Below, piece after piece: positions 1-54,424 of a stretch of 64,000 nucleotides of DNA. The notes beneath the pieces were generated by a model that ran no database searches, was not told the DNA's origin, and saw only the letters and a program-made list of their open reading frames with translations. Both the position numbers and the translations under genes were made by a program. Numbering within the stretch: position 1 is the stretch's first letter; the number at the start of each line of letters is the position of its first letter. Source of the stretch: Marsupella aquatica (lineage: Eukaryota; Plantae; Marchantiophyta); contig OZ316892.1 of NCBI GenBank assembly GCA_973895155.1, positions 1,615,223-1,679,222 of the forward strand, written 5' to 3'.

Positions 1-1095
1 ACTGCATCAGTTGCTCCTCCTTCCAGTGGCAAAGCAACCAGTGCCAACAAATTGCCTAAGCAACCACAGAAGCAACCCGCTCAGAAGGAGGCTCACAACG
101 CACAGGCAACTCAACTCCAGTCTCTGACTCATGAGGTTGAGTCATTACATGCCCAACTTGCCAACATCAAAGGCAAGTCTATTGCCTCTACTGGTCCTTC
201 TCAACCGGCTGGTCACGTGCAACCCATCCCTGGCCCAGGCACCACTGACAGTTCAGCACCCCTACCCCGCTCTTTCTATGGCTTGCCATTTGATGCTCAT
301 ATGGGTGAGTGTGTGCTGTCCTCTGCGACACAGCCTGGCCTTACAGCAGCATTTTCAGATTCATTCTGCCCTTCCTATTTTGCTTACCAGCAGGCCAGTG
401 CTGCCTCCCGTATTGCTCCCACACGCCGCATTGTACAAGCTGATGGTCTTGCTGCTGGTCCTATGACTAGAGCCAAGTGAGCTCGGGCTGTCATGCCCCA
501 ATCTTTTCAGCCACTCACACTTGCTGAAGAGCGCACCTTGTTGGCGAGGGGGGAGGGAGCTGCAGCTACATCCATTCCACCACCAGGTGCTGCTGACATT
601 TCACAGGGAGTTGTTTTTCCTGAGCTGCTTGAGCATTTCACCTCCGGTATGGCACAAAGGATTCTTACCACTCCACTTTTCAGTTGCCATGATTTACAGC
701 TGGATGCTAGAGCTGTCATCAGAGCGCTAGAGGGCTCACTACATTCTTCATCAACCCCTGTGACACCGGTTTTGGAGGTCCAATCTCATGTTAATACTGG
801 ACCTTCTTCTTCTCCACTGCATGCTTCCACTGGTTTGGCTATCCCAGTACCGATTTCCAGTGGTAGAGATGACAGTATTGCTACAGATTGTGTGACCAGA
901 GCTACACTTGATTCTGGTCATGCTGCTCCATCTTTCCTGGCTATGCTATTGAGTGGGAAGACCATGGACACTAACTCCCTTCACAAGGTACCTCATCATT
1001 TGCCAAAAGTGGTGCCTAGTGACAGGACTTTAGTTTCCACCACCATTGCCATTGTTGACAACAGGAATTCAGCAGTCAAGTTGGAGGGTCACACT

Positions 1096-1420
1096 CATCA
1101 GGTGGTCATGCTAGACACAGGCGCTCAACCAGTAATCTTGGGCATTCAGTTTGCCAAGAAGATGGGATTGCTGACTGATCATTTATAGCAATCCAGGTGG
1201 CACATTCGGACTGCTAGTGGCACTGTGGAGGATGTGTTGGGTGAGAGTTCTACTTTACTCACTCTCACTTTTAATGGAGGTACAGATCAGGAACTGCATT
1301 TCCCAGTCAGATGTTTGGTTACCAATGCTACTACGTATGATGTGCTCATTGGCCAGGAGGCTTTGTTCCCACCAGGTTTTACCATTGACAACTGGCATGA
1401 GCATGCATACTATAGAGTTG
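1096..1420 (+). pseudogene. Retroelement aspartic protease domain, interrupted by an in-frame TAG
   Basis: VMLDTGAQPVILG (DTG catalytic motif, ~1105-1143), then IRTASG and YDVLIG after the stop at 1186-1188. Confidence 0.85.
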
Positions 1421-1770
1421 ATTGGCATACGGATGGCTCACACTTGGGATACATTCCACTTGATTTGCATGGTGCCCATACCCCTATGGCTCACCACTGT
1501 GTGTTGAAAGTAGTGCACATAGCTACCTATGTCAACCACCCATTGCAGGATTGGATTGAGGATGAGGTGGCTACTGCACATGCTGCTGCACGTGTAGCAG
1601 CACTTTCCAGCAACGTGGATCATCAACCAGAGGTGGTACAACGGCTCCAAGCAGCCCATGGACCTTTGGTGGCTGCATTGCACAAATTTGAGGACCTTGG
1701 GCAGCATAATGGACAACCAATGCCCCCAATCTTGAGCGCACCAGTTACCTGGACTCCTCCTTCAGATGGC

Positions 1771-2715
1771 CTTACATTGCTTGAGCTTTTTGGTGGCATT
1801 TCTACAGGCCTGGAAGCTCTCCTAAAGTTTGGCATGGTGGTGAAGCAGTACATCTATGTGGATATTGATCCAAGTGCAAGGCAAGTGGCTGAATCCCGTC
1901 TGCTGGAATTTTCAGAGCGATTTCCTCAGCAGTTTCCACACAGTGCATGGAAGTCTGCATTTTCTTTCTTTCCTCCAGATATCCAGCTTGTCCAGCACCG
2001 CCACTTAACCCTTCTTGGCTCCCTTGATTTGATCATAGCTGGTTGGGAATGCCAAGGGTTTTTAGCTGCTGGTCACGGTGCTGGACTGCATGATTCTCGT
2101 TCTGGCCTTTTCACAGCATTGGTTCAGATTCTCACCTGGGCTCAATCCCTTTATCCTGCTATTGGTTATATCATTGAGAATACTCCATCTCAGTTTGACC
2201 AGCATCCACAGGTCAAAGAGGATTTCAGTGTGGTCCAGCACTACTTGGGACCACCCCTTCTCATTGATGCAGTGCACTGTGGTTCTTATGCACATCGTCT
2301 TCGTAACTTTTGGACTAACCTTGCACCACCTTCCTTGCTAGAGATGGCTCTTCACCACACATCCAGGGACACTAACCTTATAGTGGACCAGATTTTGGAT
2401 CCTGACAGTTCTTGCCAACCAGTTACACGGCAAGAGCCAGCACCTTGGTATCCAGCTAATACCATTGGACAACCCCGTGCTGCTTGGCCTACATTTGTGT
2501 CCTTTCCAGGTGCACATGCTTTTCAGGGTGATGGTCCTGGGCTGGTTTATCGACATTCTATCGGTACATGGGATGAACCTAGTCCTGAGGAGAGAGAACG
2601 GGCTATGGGCTTCCAACCCGGTACTACAGGTCACACCAAAATCACCAGGCTGGCCAGGAATGCTTTACTTGGCAGGGTAATGGATCTCAATGCTCTCACT
2701 TGGCTTCTGGTCACT
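1771..2715 (+). CDS. C5 cytosine DNA methyltransferase domain (Dnmt3/DRM-like) within Pol
   Basis: Motifs in canonical order: I LLELFGGIS (~1777), II YVDID, IV DLIIAGWECQGF (Cys ~2050), VI YIIENT (~2176), VIII AHRLRNFWTNL (~2296), IX ERERAMGFQPGTT, X RNALLGRVMD (~2656-2685). Confidence 0.9.
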
Positions 2716-3189
2716 TGCATCCTTTTTCAGATGTACATTCCTCCAACATTAGGAGCTCCAGCCCTACCCCTCCACAGTGCTGCTACATGGCATCCAGACC
2801 AGGTGCACTTACCTCTATTCAACACTCACCACTTCAGTCCAAGTGTTGGGGGGGAGGAGGTCCCTTGTAATGTGGCTGACATTATTTCTGAGTTTCATGG
2901 TGTGGATCAGACCAGAGCAACAGATACAGCAGGCCTTGGAGAGGCCTCATCACCTTATCAGCAGCATGCTAGCAGCTTGGACAGTGGAGAGGCTGGCACT
3001 TCTGGCTCTTCAAGCACGAGTACATCAGGTCCTATTCCTAGTGTTGCCAACTACACATTTATCATGGGCAACCACCTGAGTAAAAGACAGAAAGACCAGC
3101 TGCTGAATTTTCTCCTCAAGCATGAGAATGTGTTTGCTTTCTCTATGAAGGACTTGGGTAAGTGCAAGACTATGCAGTTCTCCATTGAG

Positions 3190-3830
3190 TTGGCTGATGA
3201 AACACCTATCTTTAGGCGGAGACACCGTTTGAGTAAGCATGAGTGGCAGCTGGTGGATGAGAGGTGCCAAGAGCTTTATGAAGCTGGTCTTATTCAGCCA
3301 TCTACATCAGATTTTGCGGCAGCTACAGTGATGCCAGCAAAGAAGGATTCCAGTGGATTGTGGACAGAGAAGCGCATGTGTGGGGACTACAGGCCATTGA
3401 ACCTGGTCACACCCCAGGACAGGTACCCCATGCCGTGGCCAGAGGAGCTATTTGACAGCATTGGAGACTCATACATCTTCACTCTTGTGGATCTAAGGCA
3501 AGGCTTCAACCAGATTTTGCTGCTTGCAAAGGATCGCAAGAAAACAACTTTCCATGGTAGTAACCAACTATGGGAGTGGTTGGTGATGCCATTTGGCTTG
3601 AAGAATGCGCCCATATTCTTTCAAAGAGTCATGGACCAGGTTCTGCAAGGTGCTGTGTTTCTGAAATGCTACATTGATGATGTGTTGGTCCACAGCAAAG
3701 GATTTGACCAGCATCTACTTGACCTTGAGGAGCTATTCATGAGGCTTAAGAAGGTGAACCTAAAGATACACCCCAAGAAGTGTGAATTTGCTGTCAGATC
3801 AGTAGTATATCTTGGGCATCGCATTCTTCC
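3190..3830 (+). CDS. Reverse transcriptase domain
   Basis: KRMCGDYRPLN, DRYPMP, VDLRQGFNQI, VMPFGLKNAP, YIDD (3670-3681), KIHPKKC, YLGH. Confidence 0.97.
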
Positions 3831-4089
3831 AAATGGAACCATGGCTCACTGGGCCAAGGTGGTATCCATCTTGGAAATGCCCACTCCTACCGATGTTCAC
3901 ACTTTGAGGAGTTTTATTGGGTTGTGCAATTACTACCGGATCTACATCAAAGATTTCAGTACCATTGCACACCCATTGTATTCTTTGTTGAAAAAGAATG
4001 TGACTTGGACATGGAGTACAGATGCTGAGGCAGCATTTGCCACTTTGAAGGAGAAGCTCTCAGAATACCCGGTGCTGAGAAGACCTGAT

Positions 4090-4470
4090 TTCAACAAGGT
4101 CTTTGTGCTACACACAGATTGGAGTGCCCTTGGGATTGGTGCCATTCTGGGCCAGCATGATGAGGAAGGTAAAGAGTATGTCATTGCCTATGCATCTAGG
4201 AGCAACAATCAGGCAGAGAGTCATTATTCTTCTTATGAGGGTGAATGCCTTGCTGTTGTGTGGGCTGTCATACATTACAGGCCCTACCTCTATGGGACCA
4301 GGTTTGTTCTCTACACCGACCACCAGCCCTTGAAGTGGTTGATGACCAACGACAAGCTTACTGGCAAGCTTGCTCGTTGGGCACTCATACTCCAGGAGTA
4401 TGATTTTGAGGTAATTCATAGGCCTGGTGTGACACATCAAAATGCTGACACTATGTCCCGCAGCCCTTTG
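4090..4470 (+). CDS. RNase H domain (Ty3 type)
   Basis: FVLHTDWSALGIGAILGQ, VIAYASR, YSSYEGECLAVVWA, YTDHQPL, HRPGVTHQNADTMSR. Confidence 0.95.
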
Positions 4471-4779
4471 ATTGCCTCTGATGATCCCTCAGATGCACGG
4501 CAGGATTTTGACCAGGTTTCCATCCTGCCTACATTTCATGCATCTACCTATCTTGCTTTGCTGCCATGCTACATTGTTGACCAACCTGTGGTGGACATAT
4601 GGGAGGACAGCGACACTCTGAGATTTCTGCAGGATGGGGAGTACCCCACCCATGTTACTGCTGCCCAGAGAGACCGAATTCAGCAAAGGTCCAAGCGCTA
4701 CTTGTGGAAAGGAGATCATCTTGTGCGCTGCTTGTCAGACAGGGAAATGGTGGTTCCACCCATTCATGAGAGGGTTGGC

Positions 4780-5800
4780 CTTATCCGTAAGGTACATTCT
4801 GAGCTTGGTCATTTTGGTGTTAAGAGGACTTATAGCCTCTTGGTCCCCCATTATCATTGGAGAGGCATGCATGGCCAGGTTCGAGATGTTATTGCCCGGT
4901 GTGAGCAGTGTGATAGGGTAAGGACTTCTTTCACATCTCGGCAACCCACACTTCATCCACTCCCTATTCAGGGCATGTTTTATCGTTGGTCATGTGATTT
5001 GGCTGGAGAATTACCCCTCACATCTCGGGGTAATCTCTACATCATGATCATGATAGAGCATTTCTCCAAGTGGATAGAACTTGTGGCATTGCCGGATAAG
5101 ACCTCCCGTAGCACCAGCCAGGCATTCTTGCAACAAGTTCTCAGCCGCTTTGGAGCTTGTGCAGAATGTCTCACTGACCAGGGCTCAGAGTTTAGAGGAG
5201 AGTTCCAGGAGCTGCTTGATCAGGCTCTCATTGATCATCGCCGGACATCACGAGATCACCCACAGGCAGATGGCTTGGCAGAGCGCATGGTTCAGACATG
5301 CAAGAAGGGCCTTCGGAAGATCTGCCTCACCAAAAACAAGGAGGATTGGGACCTGGCCTTACCCTACATTGCCATGGGGTATAGGATGTCCAGACATGCA
5401 TCACTGTCTAACTTTTCTCCCTACTTCTTGTTGTTTGGTCGTCACCCAGTTCCACCTTCTACTATTGCTTCTCACATGCTTCAGGTGGTGGACTTGGATT
5501 CAGCTGTGACTTGGTCTGATGTGATCTCTGAGAGGGCTGCCCTATTCAGGAGGGTTATGCCCATGGCCATGGAGAATTTGGCCATTGCACAGCATAGGGA
5601 CACACTGCGTTATGCACACACACGAGGGGGCACTTTTCAGCCCAAGGTCAGGAAGTTTGAAGTGGGAGATTTTGTGTACTTGCAGCGGCAAGCTAACGAC
5701 ACCCTGGACACCTCTACCAGTCGTACTATTCTCAGGGTTAAAGCTATTCGACCGTCTGGAGTGCTAGAGTTACAAGGGGCAGATGGGCGCACAATTGCTG
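4780..5800 (+). CDS. Integrase (HHCC zinc finger, DDE core, C-terminal region)
   Basis: HSELGH...CEQC; WSCDLAG, LTDQGSEF, HPQADGLAERMVQ; SPYFLLFGR; FEVGDFVYL. Confidence 0.95.
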
Positions 5801-5889
5801 ACAATGCCAAGAATTGCGCCCCTTGTCATCTGCCTAACCTAGATCCCACCATTGTGACTTCTACTTGGATTCCACCTGTGGACTACCCT

Positions 5890-6041
5890 TGCAAGGTGTG
5901 TTTGCGAATTGATGATGCTGACCAGATGCTGCTGTGTGACAATTGCATGGAGGGTACCATCTTTTCTGCCTTCGGCCTGAACTTACCCAGGTGCTAGAAG
6001 GGTTATGGTTTTGCCCTTCTTGTGCTCCACGTGCTACCTGA
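5890..6041 (+). pseudogene. C-terminal PHD finger of Pol, split by a 1-bp frameshift
   Basis: CKVCLRIDDADQMLLCDNC in the pol frame, then in the shifted frame GGYHLFCLRPELTQVLEGLWFCPSCAPRAT*. Together these give the C4HC3 pattern with the conserved W before the last CxxC. Confidence 0.88.
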
Positions 6042-6617
6042 ATTTTCTTCAGCCCTCCTTTTGGCTGTGGTCTGGGGGGGATACAGAGGTTTACACCTCC
6101 ACTACGTACATACCACTTCATTTGCTTTTTCTTGGCACTTGTGAATGTGATTGGACTTTTTCTATGCATGTTGGTTGCTAGCAGCTTGCACATATGCCTT
6201 GCCGGTGACTTGTATGTTTTCGATACACTATGGCTACGATACTATATGTCACGACAGGGCAGCTGTGGTTTAAAGGCCTGAGAGATGGTCCAGCAATATG
6301 CAACCTAAAGTCATCAGTGTTTGACTGCACTGCTCTCGTTGTTGCCCAGCAATTTGCAACCGAAAAACCTCTGTTGATTATGCCTCAGTATGATCCTATC
6401 TAGTATGAACCCTTTCATTTTGTCTGTGCATTAAAGAAGAGGGCTACCGATGCACTTATGGAATAAATTCAGAAAGGAGGCTAGCCTGGGCACAACAGGA
6501 GACTGAACGCGCCAATAATTGGGTTGCAACACCACAGAAGACACTGTTGTTTATGCAAAGGATGTCTTATCATGAGAGCTTCTATGGCCATGATCGATTA
6601 ACAGGTTCAATCAAATC

Positions 6618-6750: not shown

Positions 6751-6972
6751 AAACAAATACTTAGGGGTCCACGAACTTATTAAATTTTCCTGGCGCCGGA
6801 AATGCCATATGTGAAGAGATATTTGGCGAGCAGGGCAGGGGCGAGTGACCAACTTCAGTTGGGATAGAGCAGGTTGGATAAAGATTTTTTGAGGAAAATC
6901 CACACCCTAGGATGCAAACATGTGGCATGATTTGAGCCATCAGATGCTTATGAGTTAAGTGGTAAACTTAAA

Positions 6973-7260
6973 CATTGCTAGAAAAAGGTGACATTCTAGT
7001 CAAAAATAAAATAAAATCAGGACAAGGTATCAATTTCAGACAAAAAAGTGGCAAATAGTAAATTTGAGAAGCTAGAAATCAGAAAAGTCTTAAAGCATTA
7101 AGAACGTGTTAACTTAGCCATTGCTAGAAAAAGGTGACATTCTAGTCAAAATTTTTAAAAATCATGACAAGGTATTAATTTCACACAAAATAGTGGCCAA
7201 TAGTAAATCTCAGGAGCTAGAAATCAGAAAAGTCTTTAAGGCATTAAGAACGTGTTCAAC
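6973..7260. repeat. ~146-bp tandem duplication
   Basis: cattgctagaaaaaggtgacattctagtcaaaa...gcattaagaacgtgtt occurs at ~6973 and ~7119. Confidence 0.9.
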
Positions 7261-7811: not shown

Positions 7812-8453
7812 ATGGCAACAACAACCATGCAATCGTTAGTGGGTCTCTCATCCCGCTCTGGAATCGCTGGTATTCCCTGCCAATTCTCCAGCAGGGCGGT
7901 CAGGACGCAGAGAAGAAATTTGGGGGGAGGGGGAGTTGCAGCGAACATCAGGGCGCAAGCTGCAGCAGAGGAAGGAGAAGCATCATCATCGGCAGCAGCA
8001 GCGACAGAAGCAGGGACAGAAGTTGGAGGAGATGGAGATGGGGATGACTTTGAAGCTAGGCTAGCAAGGCTTCAAAGGAAGGTCACCAGTGGAACAGGGA
8101 AGAAGGCCGAGGCAAGGAAAGCGAGGAAAGAAGCGGGGGGAGATCCGTATTCTGCAACAACTGCAGCAAAGCCTAAGAAGGATGACATGTTCATTCCACC
8201 GGTGCCCCTCAAGGAGCCTGTTTCGGACGGATTGACTGTCGAGTTGGGGATGACGCCCTACACGGAGAGGTTGAATGGCAGACTAGCAGCTCTGGGACTT
8301 GCAGCGGTGCTGCTCGTAGAGCTTGCCACTGGAGACAGCTTCATCAAGTTTCATGACACCGGAACCCTCACCGTGCAGGTATATACCGTTCTTGGGTTGG
8401 CTGCCCTCTTCGTCAAGTATGAGAAAGAGAAGATTAGCATCTGGCCCAAGTAG
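7812..8453 (+). CDS. LHC-like / stress-enhanced protein (SEP family, SEP4-like), chloroplast-targeted, single exon
   Basis: Ser/Thr/Arg-rich transit peptide (MATTTMQSLVGLSSRS), chlorophyll-binding helix TPYTERLNGRLAALGLAAVLLVELATG, and a second hydrophobic helix. Confidence 0.8.
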   Translation: MATTTMQSLVGLSSRSGIAGIPCQFSSRAVRTQRRNLGGGGVAANIRAQAAAEEGEASSSAAAATEAGTEVGGDGDGDDFEARLARLQRKVTSGTGKKAEARKARKEAGGDPYSATTAAKPKKDDMFIPPVPLKEPVSDGLTVELGMTPYTERLNGRLAALGLAAVLLVELATGDSFIKFHDTGTLTVQVYTVLGLAALFVKYEKEKISIWPK

Positions 8454-19600: not shown

Positions 19601-20826
19601 CCCAGACTTTTACGGGCTCGTTCTTTGCCCGGTTTCTCTCGCTCGCTACTGTGCGTCACTTTGGAGATTTATTACTCTGCCACTGTTTTGGTCACTTTTT
19701 CTGGGTGTTAAATTATAATCTTGCCATGTTTTTTTAATTAGTTACCATAATCAGCATTTTCTTATGTGGCGTTTTAACAAATAATTCAAAAATCATGACA
19801 AGGTAATAATTTCATACCTAAAAGGTGGCAAAGTAATCAATCTAAGCGCTGCTTGATAAAGTAATGTCATTTTTGAAGCTGCTATATATATATGGTGAAT
19901 GTACATTTCAGATTTTGTCTGACTCATATTTTTGTGTCATATATTTTCATTTCAATCTCCTTTTGTATTCTATACATTTTTAATTAAATTTTAGATCTCT
20001 TTAGTTTTAGGTATTCTAGAGTGTTTTGAACTTATTTTGACAGCCACCAAAGACTCCACCACCACTAGTGAGAGAACCACCACTAGTGAGAGAAATGATG
20101 TTGAAGAACATGAATGCATAGCCTCTTAAGTTCTCCTCATGTTTTTCTTTCCTAGGTTTATGGTTTTTATTGAAAGGAGTGTCATTCATAAGGCACCCTG
20201 AGTTAAGTGCACACATCATAGCATGATTTGACTGTACCTTTTCTTGGTCAGTGTGCTTTTCTTGGCAGACACTTCACTTATATAACAGCACTTCTATGCT
20301 CTCATATTTTATTTACTTTCAGATCACCACAAGACAAAAAACAAAGCATGTTCCAGGATGAGCATGTTATATCACTACATCAATGCCCCATAAAAAGGTG
20401 TACTATTAAGTTCAGGGAACTCTGGATAAACTCACTCTCCATAAACACTTACCCTGGATTATTGCATGCTATCTTGTTCTTCCCTTTTTTTTACACGGGA
20501 TAAGTGGTTTTTAAGTGTTTTTTCTAAGCGCACATAGGGCTAAAATCCTTCCACTAAACGACAACTTTCTAAGTGCTTACCCTGGATAAGTGATTGAATG
20601 TGCTTATATGTAAATGCATAAACTCCAGAAAAGTCATTTATTGATAAAGGCATGCTCATTATTAGTAGAGTACATAATGCACTTAAGGAGTTTGGGCAAA
20701 GAATTAGGGCAGGGATCAAGGTACGAGGCTGACTACGGGGTCCATACTGCCGTCGGTACTAAAGAAGTTGTGTAGGCCCAATGTAGGAACTGTAGTCCAC
20801 TTTTGTTTTTACTACGCATTGGACAC

Positions 20827-25881: not shown

Positions 25882-26514
25882 TTATAGCTCATCCATCCGG
25901 ATATCCTTGTCAAGATTAAAAAAAACGCCATACTCCTCTTCTGCCAACGTAATGGCTTCGCTCACAAAAGCAGTGGTCACAACCGGCGGTTTTCCAGGAG
26001 CATGGCGATTGAAGATAGGTTTCCCAACTTGCAGAAACCATTGATCAGCTCCACCAGGGGCATATGTGAGAACCATTTGAGCAGGTTTGTCAGATTTATT
26101 GATGAACGAATGAGGTACCAACCTAGGCAAGTGCACAAAGCATCCCTTTGTTGCACGGAACGATCGGCTTCCAACAGTCCAGACCATCTCGCCATCGAGC
26201 ATGTACCAAGTCTCTTCCTCCCGAGTATGCATGTGCATTGGTGGACCGGCCCCTGGAGGTACAATGTCCTCAAATAGAGCATAAGTTCCTCCTGTTTCGT
26301 TTGACATGGCCTTCAAGGTGACCATAACTCCTAAGACCCACACACTGATTCCCCCACCTGCAATCCAAGTCGAACCATCATAATAAGGGCGGAAGTTATT
26401 CAAACCTTTGTCCCCGGATCGACCTTTGGAGCAGATCATTCCTAGTAAGGCATTGTTTTTTGCAAAAATTGTCACAAAGATTATCGAAGCAAAATGAAGT
26501 GATAGAATTAGCAT
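25882..26514 (-). CDS. Cupin-domain protein (quercetin dioxygenase-like monocupin) with a hydrophobic N-terminus; intronless ORF
   Basis: Motif 1 PPGAGPPMHMHTREEETWYMLDG and motif 2 GCFVHLPRLVPHSFIN, giving H-H-E-H metal ligands. Confidence 0.85.
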   Translation of the reverse strand: MLILSLHFASIIFVTIFAKNNALLGMICSKGRSGDKGLNNFRPYYDGSTWIAGGGISVWVLGVMVTLKAMSNETGGTYALFEDIVPPGAGPPMHMHTREEETWYMLDGEMVWTVGSRSFRATKGCFVHLPRLVPHSFINKSDKPAQMVLTYAPGGADQWFLQVGKPIFNRHAPGKPPVVTTAFVSEAITLAEEEYGVFFNLDKDIRMDEL

Positions 26515-28730
26515 GTACCTGGACCAATCATGGTCGTATCTCGTAAAGTATTAGAAGTGAACACCTCGTGACTGTACGATACCTGATCCATGGCTGCTCT
26601 GCTTGTGTGTATCCCAACACCAAGGGTCCAAGTTAGATCTTTATTCGCAAGCTTAAGAGATAGGTTTCGTTTCTATGGAAAGCAACTGCGGACTAACGCC
26701 AATGCGGATGTTCTGGAATCCGCTTTCGTATGCACAACCGATCTTCCCGATCCTTTCACTTATTTCAGCTTCCAAGTAGAAGATTAAACTCATCCTGACA
26801 TTTTTGTCCAGTAGATTCAAGGGAAGTAGAAGCAACAGCATACTTTAAAGGTGAATCCTATCCAACTTGATCTTCAAGCATTCTCAATTGAATACGTTCT
26901 GTATATTCAAATATTGCTGGATAAAAGTGTTGGTTCTATCAACACAAGGTTTACCAGAACATCCCAAAAGAGTCTGGTCCCCCCTTTGAAAACTCGACCC
27001 TGTTAAAACTAGTTCAGAATCGAGATCTGCCCTAGGGGACTTCAGCTTTGAAGTATAAGGATGGCTCACGTCCGTAACATCAAGCTTTCGGGTCTCAAAA
27101 GTTGCTTCAAAACACAACAGAAGGTTGAACAAGCAAAACACACAGCGCGTTCATCATCTGGCGTTTCACTAGCCATCGTCGCACCAGAGAGAAGAGCGAT
27201 GGGAGTATGAGAAGAGGATTGGACAAAATCCCCAACGTAAAGAAAAACTGCTGATTAGAGACATTAAGGCTCATCGGGCAGCGAGAGACAGAGAATCCTA
27301 ATTACAGTGAGCAGAGAGTACTGCATCAACCAAACTGACAGAAACCTGACCTGACTGATGAATTATCTATCTCACAAAGAGTAAAATAATGGGAAAATCT
27401 TCTGGAGATGGCACACCCAGAGTAAAGGAGATAAAATAGCAGATGATTAGGAGTCAAAGAGACACAGAACGACCGAAATCCAGGGAGCAAACAGAGACAG
27501 GCTACCTTATCAAATAGTGGAAAGAGAGAAATAATTGAAGAATTTCACAACCAAAACAGTGAATAAGGACAAAAAGCATATGGGGAATGAACGGAGGCAT
27601 ATTGACTGAGTTCAAGCAAAAACAGAGAACCAGAACGCCCGAAACTCAGGAAGCAAACAAAGACAAAGAATGACTACAACACAAATCGCAAACAATGACA
27701 ACATGACTGGACCGTCGAACTAAAACAATGCCTCAATCTCAAATTCAAGATGTGCGTAAATGAGAAAAGCCTCGTTAGAAGCCAGACATGGAATTAACGG
27801 AGACAAACTGACTGAAATCTCGGGAGTTAAGCAGACACAGAACTGCTGAGAATCAGGTGGCACACACTGAATGAACCTTTCCCCAGCAATGACAGAGTGA
27901 GTGGATCTAGGAGCATCAATTGCCACAAATGAGCCACAACAAGCACGAAATCAAAGAGCGAAAAGAACACAGACCGAATGACACGTTGTCAGCGAGCTAA
28001 GACATGAAGCACGAGTGAACCTCGGGGTCCCTGACCTGGCGAAACAAGTGAGAGAGAGAATGGCTTAAGCATTCTCGACAGGAAGTGGAGAAAGAACGAA
28101 CCGCAGAGGAAGTGGAGAGGAAGGAGCAGGAGAGCGGAAGGAGATGCAGCTCAGATTACTTACTCAAATCTTCTTCACAATTTGGATTCTCACCCTTCTT
28201 CTTCTTCTTCTTCCTTGCTCACTGCGGTCAGTCACGACGGTAGAGAGTCCCCAGACTTCCCCTCCACATGCAAAACAGTCGTTGCTTCTCGTCGATTCAT
28301 TTCGCATTTGGGTCAATGATCTAACCTGAACTTTCGCTTCGTAAGTTGTCGTCAATTCGTTTCGCATTGGGTTGCTTCAACTGAACGGACGCGTTCTCCG
28401 TACTCTGCGTTTCTTTTCCGTCCTAAAACGTGTGCTCTTCACAACTGCGAATATACCTCTTCCATGTGTGCGATGCCTGCTTATAGTATTGACATTGGGA
28501 CGGTGCGTAGAAAGAGAAAACTAGGAAAAGAAGATTTGATTGAATAAATGATCTGTCCAATCCAGAAAAATATATTTAATCTGAACAGTTTTCGGCCTTT
28601 CGTGGTACTTTAAAACTTTATTGGCAATTTGATCTACAGCCAATATTGAGTTAAAACGTAAACTTGGCCGCGAACTCTCCTACTGAAAGATTTTATTGGA
28701 TGCTGAGCCAGCTGTGCAAGGCAATTGGAA

Positions 28731-52102: not shown

Positions 52103-53257
52103 ACTCAATCAATACACTTCCTACAGCTACAACAGTGGTTAGGCAATACTCAATACACTTCCTGGTGTAGTTAGGTGATTGTAAGAGTAGTCATTGTGTA
52201 AGTTACATGTATCCACACTAGTGTAGTCAATTGTGTAAGTTACATGTATCCACACTAATGTAGTCAGTCAATATGCTTCCCTATAGTAGTCAGGCAAATG
52301 TATTGTGTAAGTTATATCCACACTGGTGTAGTCACTCAATACACTTCCTGGTGTAGTTGGGTGATTGTAAGAGCAGTCAGTGTGTAAGTTACATGTATCC
52401 ACACTAGTGTAGTCAATCAATATGCGCCCTATAGTAGTCAGGCAAATGTAAGAGCAGTTGTTGTGTCAGTTATATCCACACTGGTGTAGTCACTCGATAC
52501 ACTTCCCGGTGTAGTTGGGTGATTGTAAGAGCAGTCAGTGTGTAAGTTACATGTATCCACACTAGTGTAGTCAGGCAAGTGTAAGAGCAGTTGTTGTGTA
52601 AGTTATATCCACACTGGTGTAGTCTCTCAATACACTTCTGACAATAATTAGGCAATTGTAAGAGCAATCGTTGTGTAAGATACATCCACACTGTCTAGTG
52701 TAGTCACCCAGTACACTTCCTACCCTAGGTAGGCAGTCATTGTGTAAGTTACATCCACACTATTGTAGTCACTAGGTACAATGCACTTCCTACCCTAGTT
52801 AGGCAATTGTTTGTATAAGTCACATCCACACTAGTGTAATCACTCAATACGCTTCCTACAGTAGTCAGGCAAGTGTAAGAGCGGTTGTTGTGTAAGTTAC
52901 ATCCACACTAGTGTAGTCAATACACTTCCAACAATAGTTAGGCAATTGTAAGAGCACTAGTTGTGTAAGATACATCCACCCTAGTGTAGTCACTTAGTAC
53001 ACTTCCTACCCTAGGTAGACAATTGTTTGTGTAAGTTACATCCACACTAGTGTAGTCACTCAAGACACTTCCAAGAGTAGTACATTAAGCAATTGTAAGA
53101 GTTGTGTAAGATACATCCACACTATTGTAGTCACTCAGTACACTTCCTACATAGATCATAGGCAATTGTTTTTGTAAGTTACATTACACTAGTGTAGTCA
53201 CTCAGTACACTTCCTACAATAGTTAGGCAATTGTAAGAGGAGTGATTGTGTAAGTTA
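52103..53257. repeat. Degenerate tandem array, ~70-80-bp unit, about 15 copies
   Basis: Recurrent tgtgtaagttacatccacactagtgtagtcactcaatacacttcc...aggcaattgtaagag. Confidence 0.95.
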
Positions 53258-53596
53258 TGCATAGACGACATTCGCAACGGCAAGCCCATGAACCATCCAA
53301 CGCACAAGAGTCGACACAGAGAGATACGTGATTCACCTCCACATGAAGCTACGTCCACGGGAACACACTAAAGTTTTATTGCACTCTAGGCCGACAGGCC
53401 ATACCAAGCATCCACAGCACAAGCTCTCCCTATCTCTCAACTAGCTCCGTAACAATGAGCCTAAGTTCCACCAAGGTCTGGCATCAGCCCTGGCTATATG
53501 CACAACAGCACTACCGCTAACATTAGCTAAGTCCTAACCCGAGTTAGACTAACTGTGGTTAGCTCATGAGTCACAAGACTAGAGCAATATCTAACA
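53258..53596 (-). mobile_element. Solo LTR (339 bp)
   Basis: TG...CA termini, 5-bp TSD agtta (53253-53257 and 53597-53601), minus-strand start TGTTAG and AATAAA (~53375). A related uninterrupted unit lies at ~53695-53730. Confidence 0.8.
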
Positions 53597-54424
53597 AGTT
53601 AATGTAATCAATCTTCTTCTTCTTGAAATGGGAAGCATGTTTTTGAGATGGCACCATTTGTTATAGCAATAAGGCAATTGTAAGAGGAGTCATTGTGTAA
53701 GTTACTATAATCAATCTTATTCTTCTTGAAAGGTGATCCATTTTATTTGAGTCGCCACCCCGGCAAAGACCAGTGGAGCACAACGCAAAACAAATCTAGG
53801 GCAAGGTCACCCTGACAGACTGCAAGGTCTCCGTGTAAAAGACTTGTGTCAAGAGTGGATCATAATCAACCACTTAAGAACAAGCATGTTATGAGTCCAA
53901 TAACTAATCTTGAGACAAGGGCAACAATAGTCCCCTCACTCCAAATTGGTAGAGTACAAGATGTGTAATCAATCTTCTTCCCTCAACTCATTCCCTATTC
54001 TCTGTAATGCAGAGGGGTTTTGTATTAGGGCCTCTATTCCTCTCCGTGACCCCATTATGTGACCCTATTATGCAACTTACCCCATAGCTCTACCAAACTT
54101 TAATTTCTGTTTGATGCTCAAAACGACAATAGTTTCTTAGCCCTTGTTGGGGACTTTTGGACTTTTGGACTTCTTGGCTCATTTTTTTGTGGGTCTTTAG
54201 TATTCCTCTCTTTTTCCTTCTATTCTCCCCTTTAGTGGGTCTGCCTTTAGGATCCTGTCTCTAGGTTTCGCCCTATTTGTTCTTTGACGGTTTGAAATAA
54301 ATCAAATCTTTCTCTTTGTTACTCTTCCAGATGACACTATTTGTCCTTCCAACTGGCCCTCTTTCCCTGTCGCCTGCCTTGGGTACTGTGGTTGAGCTCT
54401 TGACTGTGTGTTACTGCATAATGT

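Follow-up and report, generated by a model that had tools for sequence, protein, structure and literature searches.

A PHD finger behind the integrase of a Dnmt3-bearing Gypsy family from green algae and a liverwort

The 64,000-nucleotide stretch of Marsupella aquatica DNA analysed here (the window) begins with the 3' part of a Ty3/Gypsy retrotransposon (positions 1-6256), and a genuine C4HC3 PHD finger, broken by a frameshift, is confirmed behind its integrase. Relatives indicate that the finger is a standard part of a green-plant Gypsy family, partly described before, which is present in high copy and ranges across chlorophytes, charophytes and a liverwort. What would such an element do with a chromatin reader? 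We consider targeting by histone state its likeliest role, given that this is a true PHD, conserved, of the type that reads unmodified H3 and commonly accompanied by a Dnmt3-like methyltransferase.

The finger lies in two adjacent frames of the forward strand. Its N-terminal half (5881-5946) belongs to the Pol frame and carries Cys1-Cys4, an acidic patch and the motif MLLCD; near its end this frame (1189-5997) reads DYPCKVCLRIDDADQMLLCDNC and then continues into unrelated residues. The C-terminal half (5949-6041) opens in the shifted frame as GGYHLFC…GLWFCPSC, supplies the His, Cys5-Cys7, the GxW loop and a natural stop (6039-6041), and finds matches in the PDB. Scanned separately against PF00628, the halves cover positions 1-21 (18.2 bits, E 0.0027) and 23-47 (24.3 bits, E 3.2e-5, exceeding the gathering score of 24), so that they abut on the profile with zero overlap, and the set of eight zinc ligands is complete (Cys at 5890, 5899, 5935 and 5944, His at 5958, Cys at 5967, 6012 and 6021). 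The first-pass annotation had read this finger by restoring one base near 5947, and both the repair and its expectation of a PF00628 match hold; the relatives P0008, P0063 and P0048 reach 37-43 bits on the same profile.

The frameshift is a lesion of the window copy, since most sister-copy depth is without the break. In runs X2, X4, X5 and X11, contigs with an extra base directly after 5946 make up 93-100% of the summed depth, in X3 83% and in X1 64%; the evidence consists of collapsed contigs from six public runs, in which depth is no copy count. The intact frame anticipated for sister copies was therefore found, and the relative P0001, 84% identical to the window over the integrase region, likewise has an intact finger. 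The window also departs from its sisters at the PHD proline (position 5995), a residue present in 112 of 113 relatives. The description of the finger as "hidden" does not carry beyond this locus, where the window copy has suffered damage to its frame.

The element is ordered Gag-PR-Dnmt3-like-RT-RH-IN-PHD, all on the forward strand. The 3' part of a Gag-like region (1-1074) comes first, with sister-copy depth high from base 1 and the element's 5' end outside the window, and is followed by an aspartic protease with an LDTG motif (1075-1464), recognized by weak PF13975 and PF13650 matches and an analysis-built profile. From within the protease, an ORF of 1,602 codons (1189-5997) runs through the protease end, the cytosine methyltransferase, reverse transcriptase, RNase H and integrase. 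The Dnmt3-like C5 cytosine methyltransferase (DNMT; 1768-2733), between protease and RT, matches PF00145 at E 0.0013, and 25 of 25 PDB matches are DNMT3A, 3B or 3C. Then come the reverse transcriptase with its YIDD motif (3130-3825; PF00078 E 3e-26 and an analysis-built profile), RNase H (4012-4401; PF17917/PF17919) and a DDE integrase (4750-5826) comprising an HHCC zinc domain, the core and a predicted beta-barrel C-terminal domain (PF17921, PF00665 and a model of the relative P0121). Beyond the PHD, a G7 polypurine tract (6074-6080), read in the sequence and matched in place by sister loci, precedes terminal repeat unit B (6081-6256), the element's 3' end, which ends in GTCACGACA; many unrelated contigs end loosely at 6081 and 6256, depth drops past 6256, and sister-locus ends match. 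With premature stops in Gag (478-480) and protease (1186-1188) besides the PHD frameshift, the window copy is a dead retrotransposon. It ends about 1.5 kb upstream of a single-copy host gene outside the element (7812-8453, forward strand), whose light-harvesting-like product shares 80% identity with a protein of Calypogeia fissa and 54-61% with proteins of Riccia and Marchantia, which points to a leafy liverwort as the likely host. As side observations, the CpG observed/expected ratio is 0.24 in the element (1-6256) against 0.53-0.83 elsewhere in the window, with no depletion of CHG, and unit B (6081-6256) shows a summed contig depth several-fold above that of the coding region, with many unrelated flanks on both sides, a hint of solo repeats.

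How general is the finger? Both searches for relatives used queries overlapping the PHD, so the following fractions may be somewhat overstated: among the best 120 of 348 protein relatives (query Pol residues 1150-1602), 117 carry a PHD by analysis-built profiles and 116 by precomputed Pfam, and in the best 80 of 686 metagenome DNA matches, analysed as loci, a PHD follows 54 of 54 complete integrases, in a single frame with the integrase in 45 of them, 18 of these 45 being stop-free. The three proteins without a match comprise P0087, which stops inside the integrase, P0031, which has a divergent Cys/His finger, and P0021, which has none; degenerate fingers occur in P0043, P0045 and P0031. Named relatives come from Klebsormidium, Coleochaete, Haematococcus, Volvox, Pleodorina, Tetrabaena and Chlamydomonas eustigma, and the remainder are mostly metagenome proteins. 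In one relative, P0132, DNMT, RT, IN and PHD share one natural ORF, with the His of the finger lost. Chlorophyte-type proteins extend a median of 324 residues beyond the PHD, and the two such extensions scanned (P0048 1811-2178, P0037 1764-2125) gave no Pfam match.

The finger is also conserved in sequence. Non-synonymous divergence (pN) from the window across 80 loci is 0.154 for the PHD, 0.132 for RT and IN, 0.231 for the DNMT and 0.30-0.36 for linkers; pN alone was used, synonymous sites being saturated (pS 1.02 in the PHD, 0.75 in RT). Among ten variant places listed within the finger, nine are synonymous and the tenth is the window's own proline change, with eight of the nine stemming mainly from one contig (X11) and at least 11 further entries beyond these ten. 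By these measures the PHD is conserved about as strongly as RT and IN.

The PHD also keeps a fixed place. In 114 of 115 proteins the gap between integrase and PHD measures 18-21 residues, about 19 overall; three proteins were set aside because a domain was doubled or split. In the P0121 model (mean pLDDT 74.6), the catalytic core leads through a long helix into a barrel of five strands, which a linker of low confidence connects to the PHD finger, and the fold matches the foamy-virus (PFV) and Ty3 integrases. In chromoviruses the chromodomain sits at the integrase C-terminus, and the proposal that the PHD occupies the equivalent place agrees with our finding that it comes after the predicted beta-barrel C-terminal domain. 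The PHD, on this evidence, probably belongs to the integrase.

A census of the ligand face, covering the 107 fingers of 115 inspected that match a strict pattern, suggests what the finger might read. The position two residues before the His, which we take to be the place of the H3K4me3 cage Trp in PHDs of the ING, BPTF and TAF3 type, holds Trp in none of the 107 and Gly in 103. Asp follows Cys3 in 104, and all 107 have a hydrophobic residue two positions before Cys3. Residues at the matching positions of KDM5A-PHD1 contact H3 R2 and A1 (bioRxiv 715474), contacts that we transferred to the family finger by position. The window further has an Asp at the "acidic wall" position ahead of beta-strand 1, a feature that PMC5415848 treats as nearly mutually exclusive with the K4me Trp. 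Of the 28 fingers of the window's clade, only 8 keep an acidic residue at this position or the one before it (five or six positions before Cys3), against 65 of the 79 of the chlorophyte-type clade, and in the window's clade the K4 pocket may therefore discriminate less. The sequence matches in the PDB are headed by the fingers of KDM5-PHD1, WSTF, CHD4, ATXR5, BAZ2A/B, BHC80, UHRF1, DPF, MOZ and AIRE, and TAF3, a reader of K4me3, comes much lower, at E 0.013 or worse. The leading fingers prefer unmodified tails, as is documented for part of them (PMC5415848, bioRxiv 715474). With the cage Trp of the H3K4me3-reader class missing and the residues of the unmodified-H3-tail class in place (the Asp, the A1 pocket, no cage Trp), the family PHD resembles, in its predicted contacts, readers of the unmodified H3 tail.

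The element ends in sister loci reveal how copies integrate. Two layouts occur, A1-ORF-G tract-B1-(2 nt)-A2-B2 and A1-ORF-B, with A starting TGTCATG and B ending CACGACA. Where B1 meets A2 there is an att-like CA-NN-TG, its 2-nt spacer constant in the 25 of 25 joints listed; the point where A2 meets B2 differs by a few bases between loci. Across 17 independent two-ended sites (eight long form, nine short, counting L027 and L028 as one and including L069), the 4-bp target duplication is perfect in 11, has one mismatch in two and is absent in four. Sister-locus ends and target duplications together show integration by a DDE enzyme. PAT and DIRS elements use a tyrosine recombinase and make no target duplication, and such an identity, which we considered, is ruled out by the DDE integrase and by these duplications. 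One reading takes B+A as the true LTR and would have the integrase open circular cDNA at the internal joint; for foamy virus, integrase has been reported to cleave 2-LTR circles (PMC1180852), yet none of 24 left ends is A-B-A. If the integrase could open a 2-LTR circle at both att sites alike, A-B-A left ends would be expected, and the count rejects this symmetric model; the asymmetric version alone survives. The short form may simply arise from B1-B2 recombination. The window itself has the short 3' end with a single B unit, which gave no blastn match in the 80 loci, yet its two ends and the G tract align. A contig of run X11 reads B-end/356-nt/B-start. Split-repeat ends were seen in L009 (3396-13484), L027, L031, L032, L033, L069 and L011, and in the window at 6074-6256.

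The DNMT, about 1,050 residues from the PHD in the window, is common in the family and has moved within it. It was found in 77 of the best 120 protein relatives and in 49 of the 53 metagenome loci (among the best 80 of 686) whose upstream region is covered; it stands before RT in seven of the 120, lies in 70 between RNase H and integrase, is absent in three that are covered from protease to PHD, and the other 40 are uninformative or partly covered. The 70 include proteins of Haematococcus, Pleodorina, Volvox and C. eustigma (P0028-P0120, chlorophyte-type). An integrase tree of 118 sequences (FastTree, midpoint root, no outgroup) has two clades, one uniting the window with Klebsormidium and Coleochaete, where the DNMT precedes RT wherever covered, versus the chlorophyte-type one; the window-Klebsormidium clade has support of 0.91 for the integrase and 0.99 for the DNMT, from trees built and rooted in this way. 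The Klebsormidium protein P0087, a member of the window's integrase clade, has the window's DNMT-before-RT order. Of the 58 chlorophyte-type proteins that have both RT and IN, 9 retain the PHD and have no DNMT at its site; they belong to two or more separate lineages. P0052, P0053, P0078 and P0095 represent such PHD-only lineages. With 35% identity between them, the two DNMT groups are one family, so that the simplest explanation is a single capture of the DNMT, which later changed place, with horizontal transfer as a possible alternative. The co-occurrence of PHD and DNMT that the first-pass annotation looked for is therefore common, but it is not obligatory, as lineages that keep the PHD have lost the DNMT.

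Methyltransferase activity is predicted for the family from conserved residues: the window DNMT retains the catalytic Cys (WECQG) and the EN and RxR motifs, and the catalytic Cys is present in 65 of 69 DNMT relatives. Motif IV (window 2038-2058) reads WECQG in place of the usual Pro-Cys, with Glu in 40 of 69 and Pro in 17 of 69. A Klebsormidium DNMT produced no methylation in yeast, a result that its authors consider inconclusive in the text of PMC5890265.

We think it probable that, in active copies, protease processing would keep the PHD joined to the integrase and release the DNMT as part of a different chain, and that the PHD would grip the unmodified N-terminal tail of histone H3, tethering the integration complex to nucleosomes without H3K4 methylation and tilting new insertions away from H3K4me3-marked active promoters. 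The observations in hand are the fold signature, the family-wide PHD, its conservation, the fixed integrase spacing, the lack of a methyl-K4 cage and DDE-type integration with 4-bp duplications; histone binding, mark preference and insertion bias are what we infer. The DNMT would likely be a separate accessory that methylates the element's own cDNA inside the particle, linked to the PHD by co-packaging only. A PHD-bearing Chlamydomonas Gypsy that favours intergenic sites 2.6-fold over chance (PMC9940879) speaks for such a bias, and the place of the window copy, about 1.5 kb upstream of a host gene, speaks against it. Were this tether model true, the family's integrase would be steered by a missing histone mark, a counterpart to chromoviruses. 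CpG observed/expected ratios in the flanks of 14 sister insertions, mostly 0.05-0.5 and equal to those 3-8 kb away, are uninformative on targeting. The PHD, at about 50 residues, is easy to test, and the natural knock-outs, with a PHD and no DNMT, together with the two DNMT positions, offer a way to ask what a retrotransposon DNMT is for.

Three other readings compete with such mark-sensitive tethering, and a broader one includes it. The near-invariant A1/R2 contact residues, the patchy acidic K4 side in the window's clade and the lack of sequence preference in the target duplications would also suit a general chromatin tether, in which the PHD holds the A1/R2 end of H3 on any nucleosome and docks or retains the integration complex with little mark preference; we regard this as possible but doubtful, since close structural relatives lose affinity upon K4 methylation, as the texts of PMC5415848 and bioRxiv 715474 report, and the window finger, like part of its clade, has the acidic wall. 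Some PHDs reportedly have atypical targets (PMC10124903), and the finger might bind a host factor or RNA, or stabilise integrase multimers or packaging, yet its conserved residues besides the zinc ligands make up the H3-binding face, and we find a non-histone role of this kind quite improbable.

The first-pass annotation had instead envisaged a rebuilt reader-writer module. In Dnmt3 and ATRX, the ADD domain combines a GATA-like finger with a cysteine-only PHD-like finger, adjoins the catalytic domain and prefers H3K4me0. If the element's PHD coupled H3K4me0 reading to its DNMT in this manner, the new copy and its flank would be methylated on arrival. The Dnmt3-like enzyme with its conserved catalytic Cys, its frequent company with the PHD, its place directly before the integrase in the chlorophyte-type clade and a predicted mark preference equal to that of ADD all speak for it. 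However, the finger is of the His type rather than an ADD-like one, its spacing is tied to the integrase, the DNMT occupies two sites, far from the PHD in the window, and was lost while the PHD was kept, and the Klebsormidium enzyme was inactive in yeast, inconclusive as that is. A profile scan of the window and scanned relatives gave no ADD family match. An uncontrolled complex prediction (P0132 38-368 with P0121 290-347) scored 0.01 and bears neither way. The module as a physical unit is not supported, and we hold it to be about as improbable as a non-histone role. Slightly less remote, though still unlikely in our view, is a version in trans, in which an ancient green-lineage Gypsy clade rebuilt Dnmt3 logic: the PHD would dock on H3K4-unmethylated nucleosomes, the co-packaged Dnmt3 would methylate the incoming copy, which would arrive pre-silenced, and the DDE integrase would open circular cDNA at the internal CA-NN-TG to give the A…B and A…B-A-B forms.

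The window element is kin of KnitGypsy-Dnmt3 and other streptophyte Gypsy-DNMT3 elements (PMC5890265, whose text describes them). They share a Dnmt3-type DNMT within Gypsy Pol, the set and order of PR, RT, RH and DDE IN, and terminal repeats noted there as "DIRS-like", which the A…B-A-B anatomy of the window's sister loci explains in detail. They differ in that the window's host is a land plant, a liverwort, and in its chlorophyte sister clade with the DNMT elsewhere in Pol. Neither the main text nor three supplementary files of that paper contain the word PHD, a scope outside which its figures fall, and Fig. 4c, of domain architectures, may draw one. The literature seen places Gypsy-DNMT3 in streptophytes only, and the chlorophyte-type clade here carries a DNMT too; retrotransposon DNMT3s are otherwise known from streptophytes and dinoflagellates (PMC12344493). 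PHDs, for their part, are described as widespread in retrotransposons and common in Chlamydomonas transposable elements (PMC6673714, PMC8557442). One of these, comparable by description, is Gypsy-7a_cRei of Chlamydomonas reinhardtii, for which the text of Craig et al. (PMC9940879) reports a PHD in Gag-Pol, proposes targeting and finds intergenic insertion 2.6 times chance, a bias that could reflect post-insertion selection; unlike the window's family, it has near-normal paired LTRs and no DNMT among its listed domains. Selgy elements were considered as PHD carriers and set aside, with 0 mentions of PHD in PMC6317226.

Chromoviruses likewise attach a targeting chromatin reader to the integrase (PMC6673714 and bioRxiv 2026.05.21.726589), whereas the reader of this family is a PHD with a predicted preference for unmodified H3K4, and a profile scan found no chromodomain in the window or scanned relatives. 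EpiLTRs combine a chromatin reader with a cytosine DNMT in a single LTR element, yet there the reader is a chromodomain, the enzyme is DNMT4-related and an adenine methyltransferase is added, and the text separates their acquisition from that of Gypsy-DNMT3 (bioRxiv 10.64898/2026.05.21.726589). With the KDM5-PHD1, BAZ2A/B, UHRF1, CHD4 and ATXR5 fingers, the window's family shares LLCD, the lack of a cage Trp, the GxW loop and, in the window finger and part of its clade, the acidic wall, but those are host proteins with binding measured in the work described in PMC5415848 and bioRxiv 715474, and here binding is predicted from sequence. A literature search found no published description of PHD plus DNMT3 for the family, though subscription papers, figures, bioRxiv supplements and Craig's 2021 thesis may contain one. 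One broken copy is nothing unusual, and all of the ingredients have been published before: a PHD-bearing Gypsy Pol with insertion bias and a targeting hypothesis, Gypsy-DNMT3, and reader-plus-DNMT elements. The search met no publication that assigns a PHD class across the family, reports a chlorophyte clade in which the DNMT has moved, or describes these element ends and their 4-bp duplications.

Elsewhere in the window, a 145-bp duplicated unit lies between the element and the host gene (6962-7240), with a third partial copy 12.6 kb off (19778-19831), and is possibly a small mobile element. An intronless ORF on the reverse strand (25882-26550) has a cupin-like HxHxxEEE motif, judged by eye, and a degenerate tandem array of roughly 70-80-bp units (families D1-D6) occupies 52117-53704.
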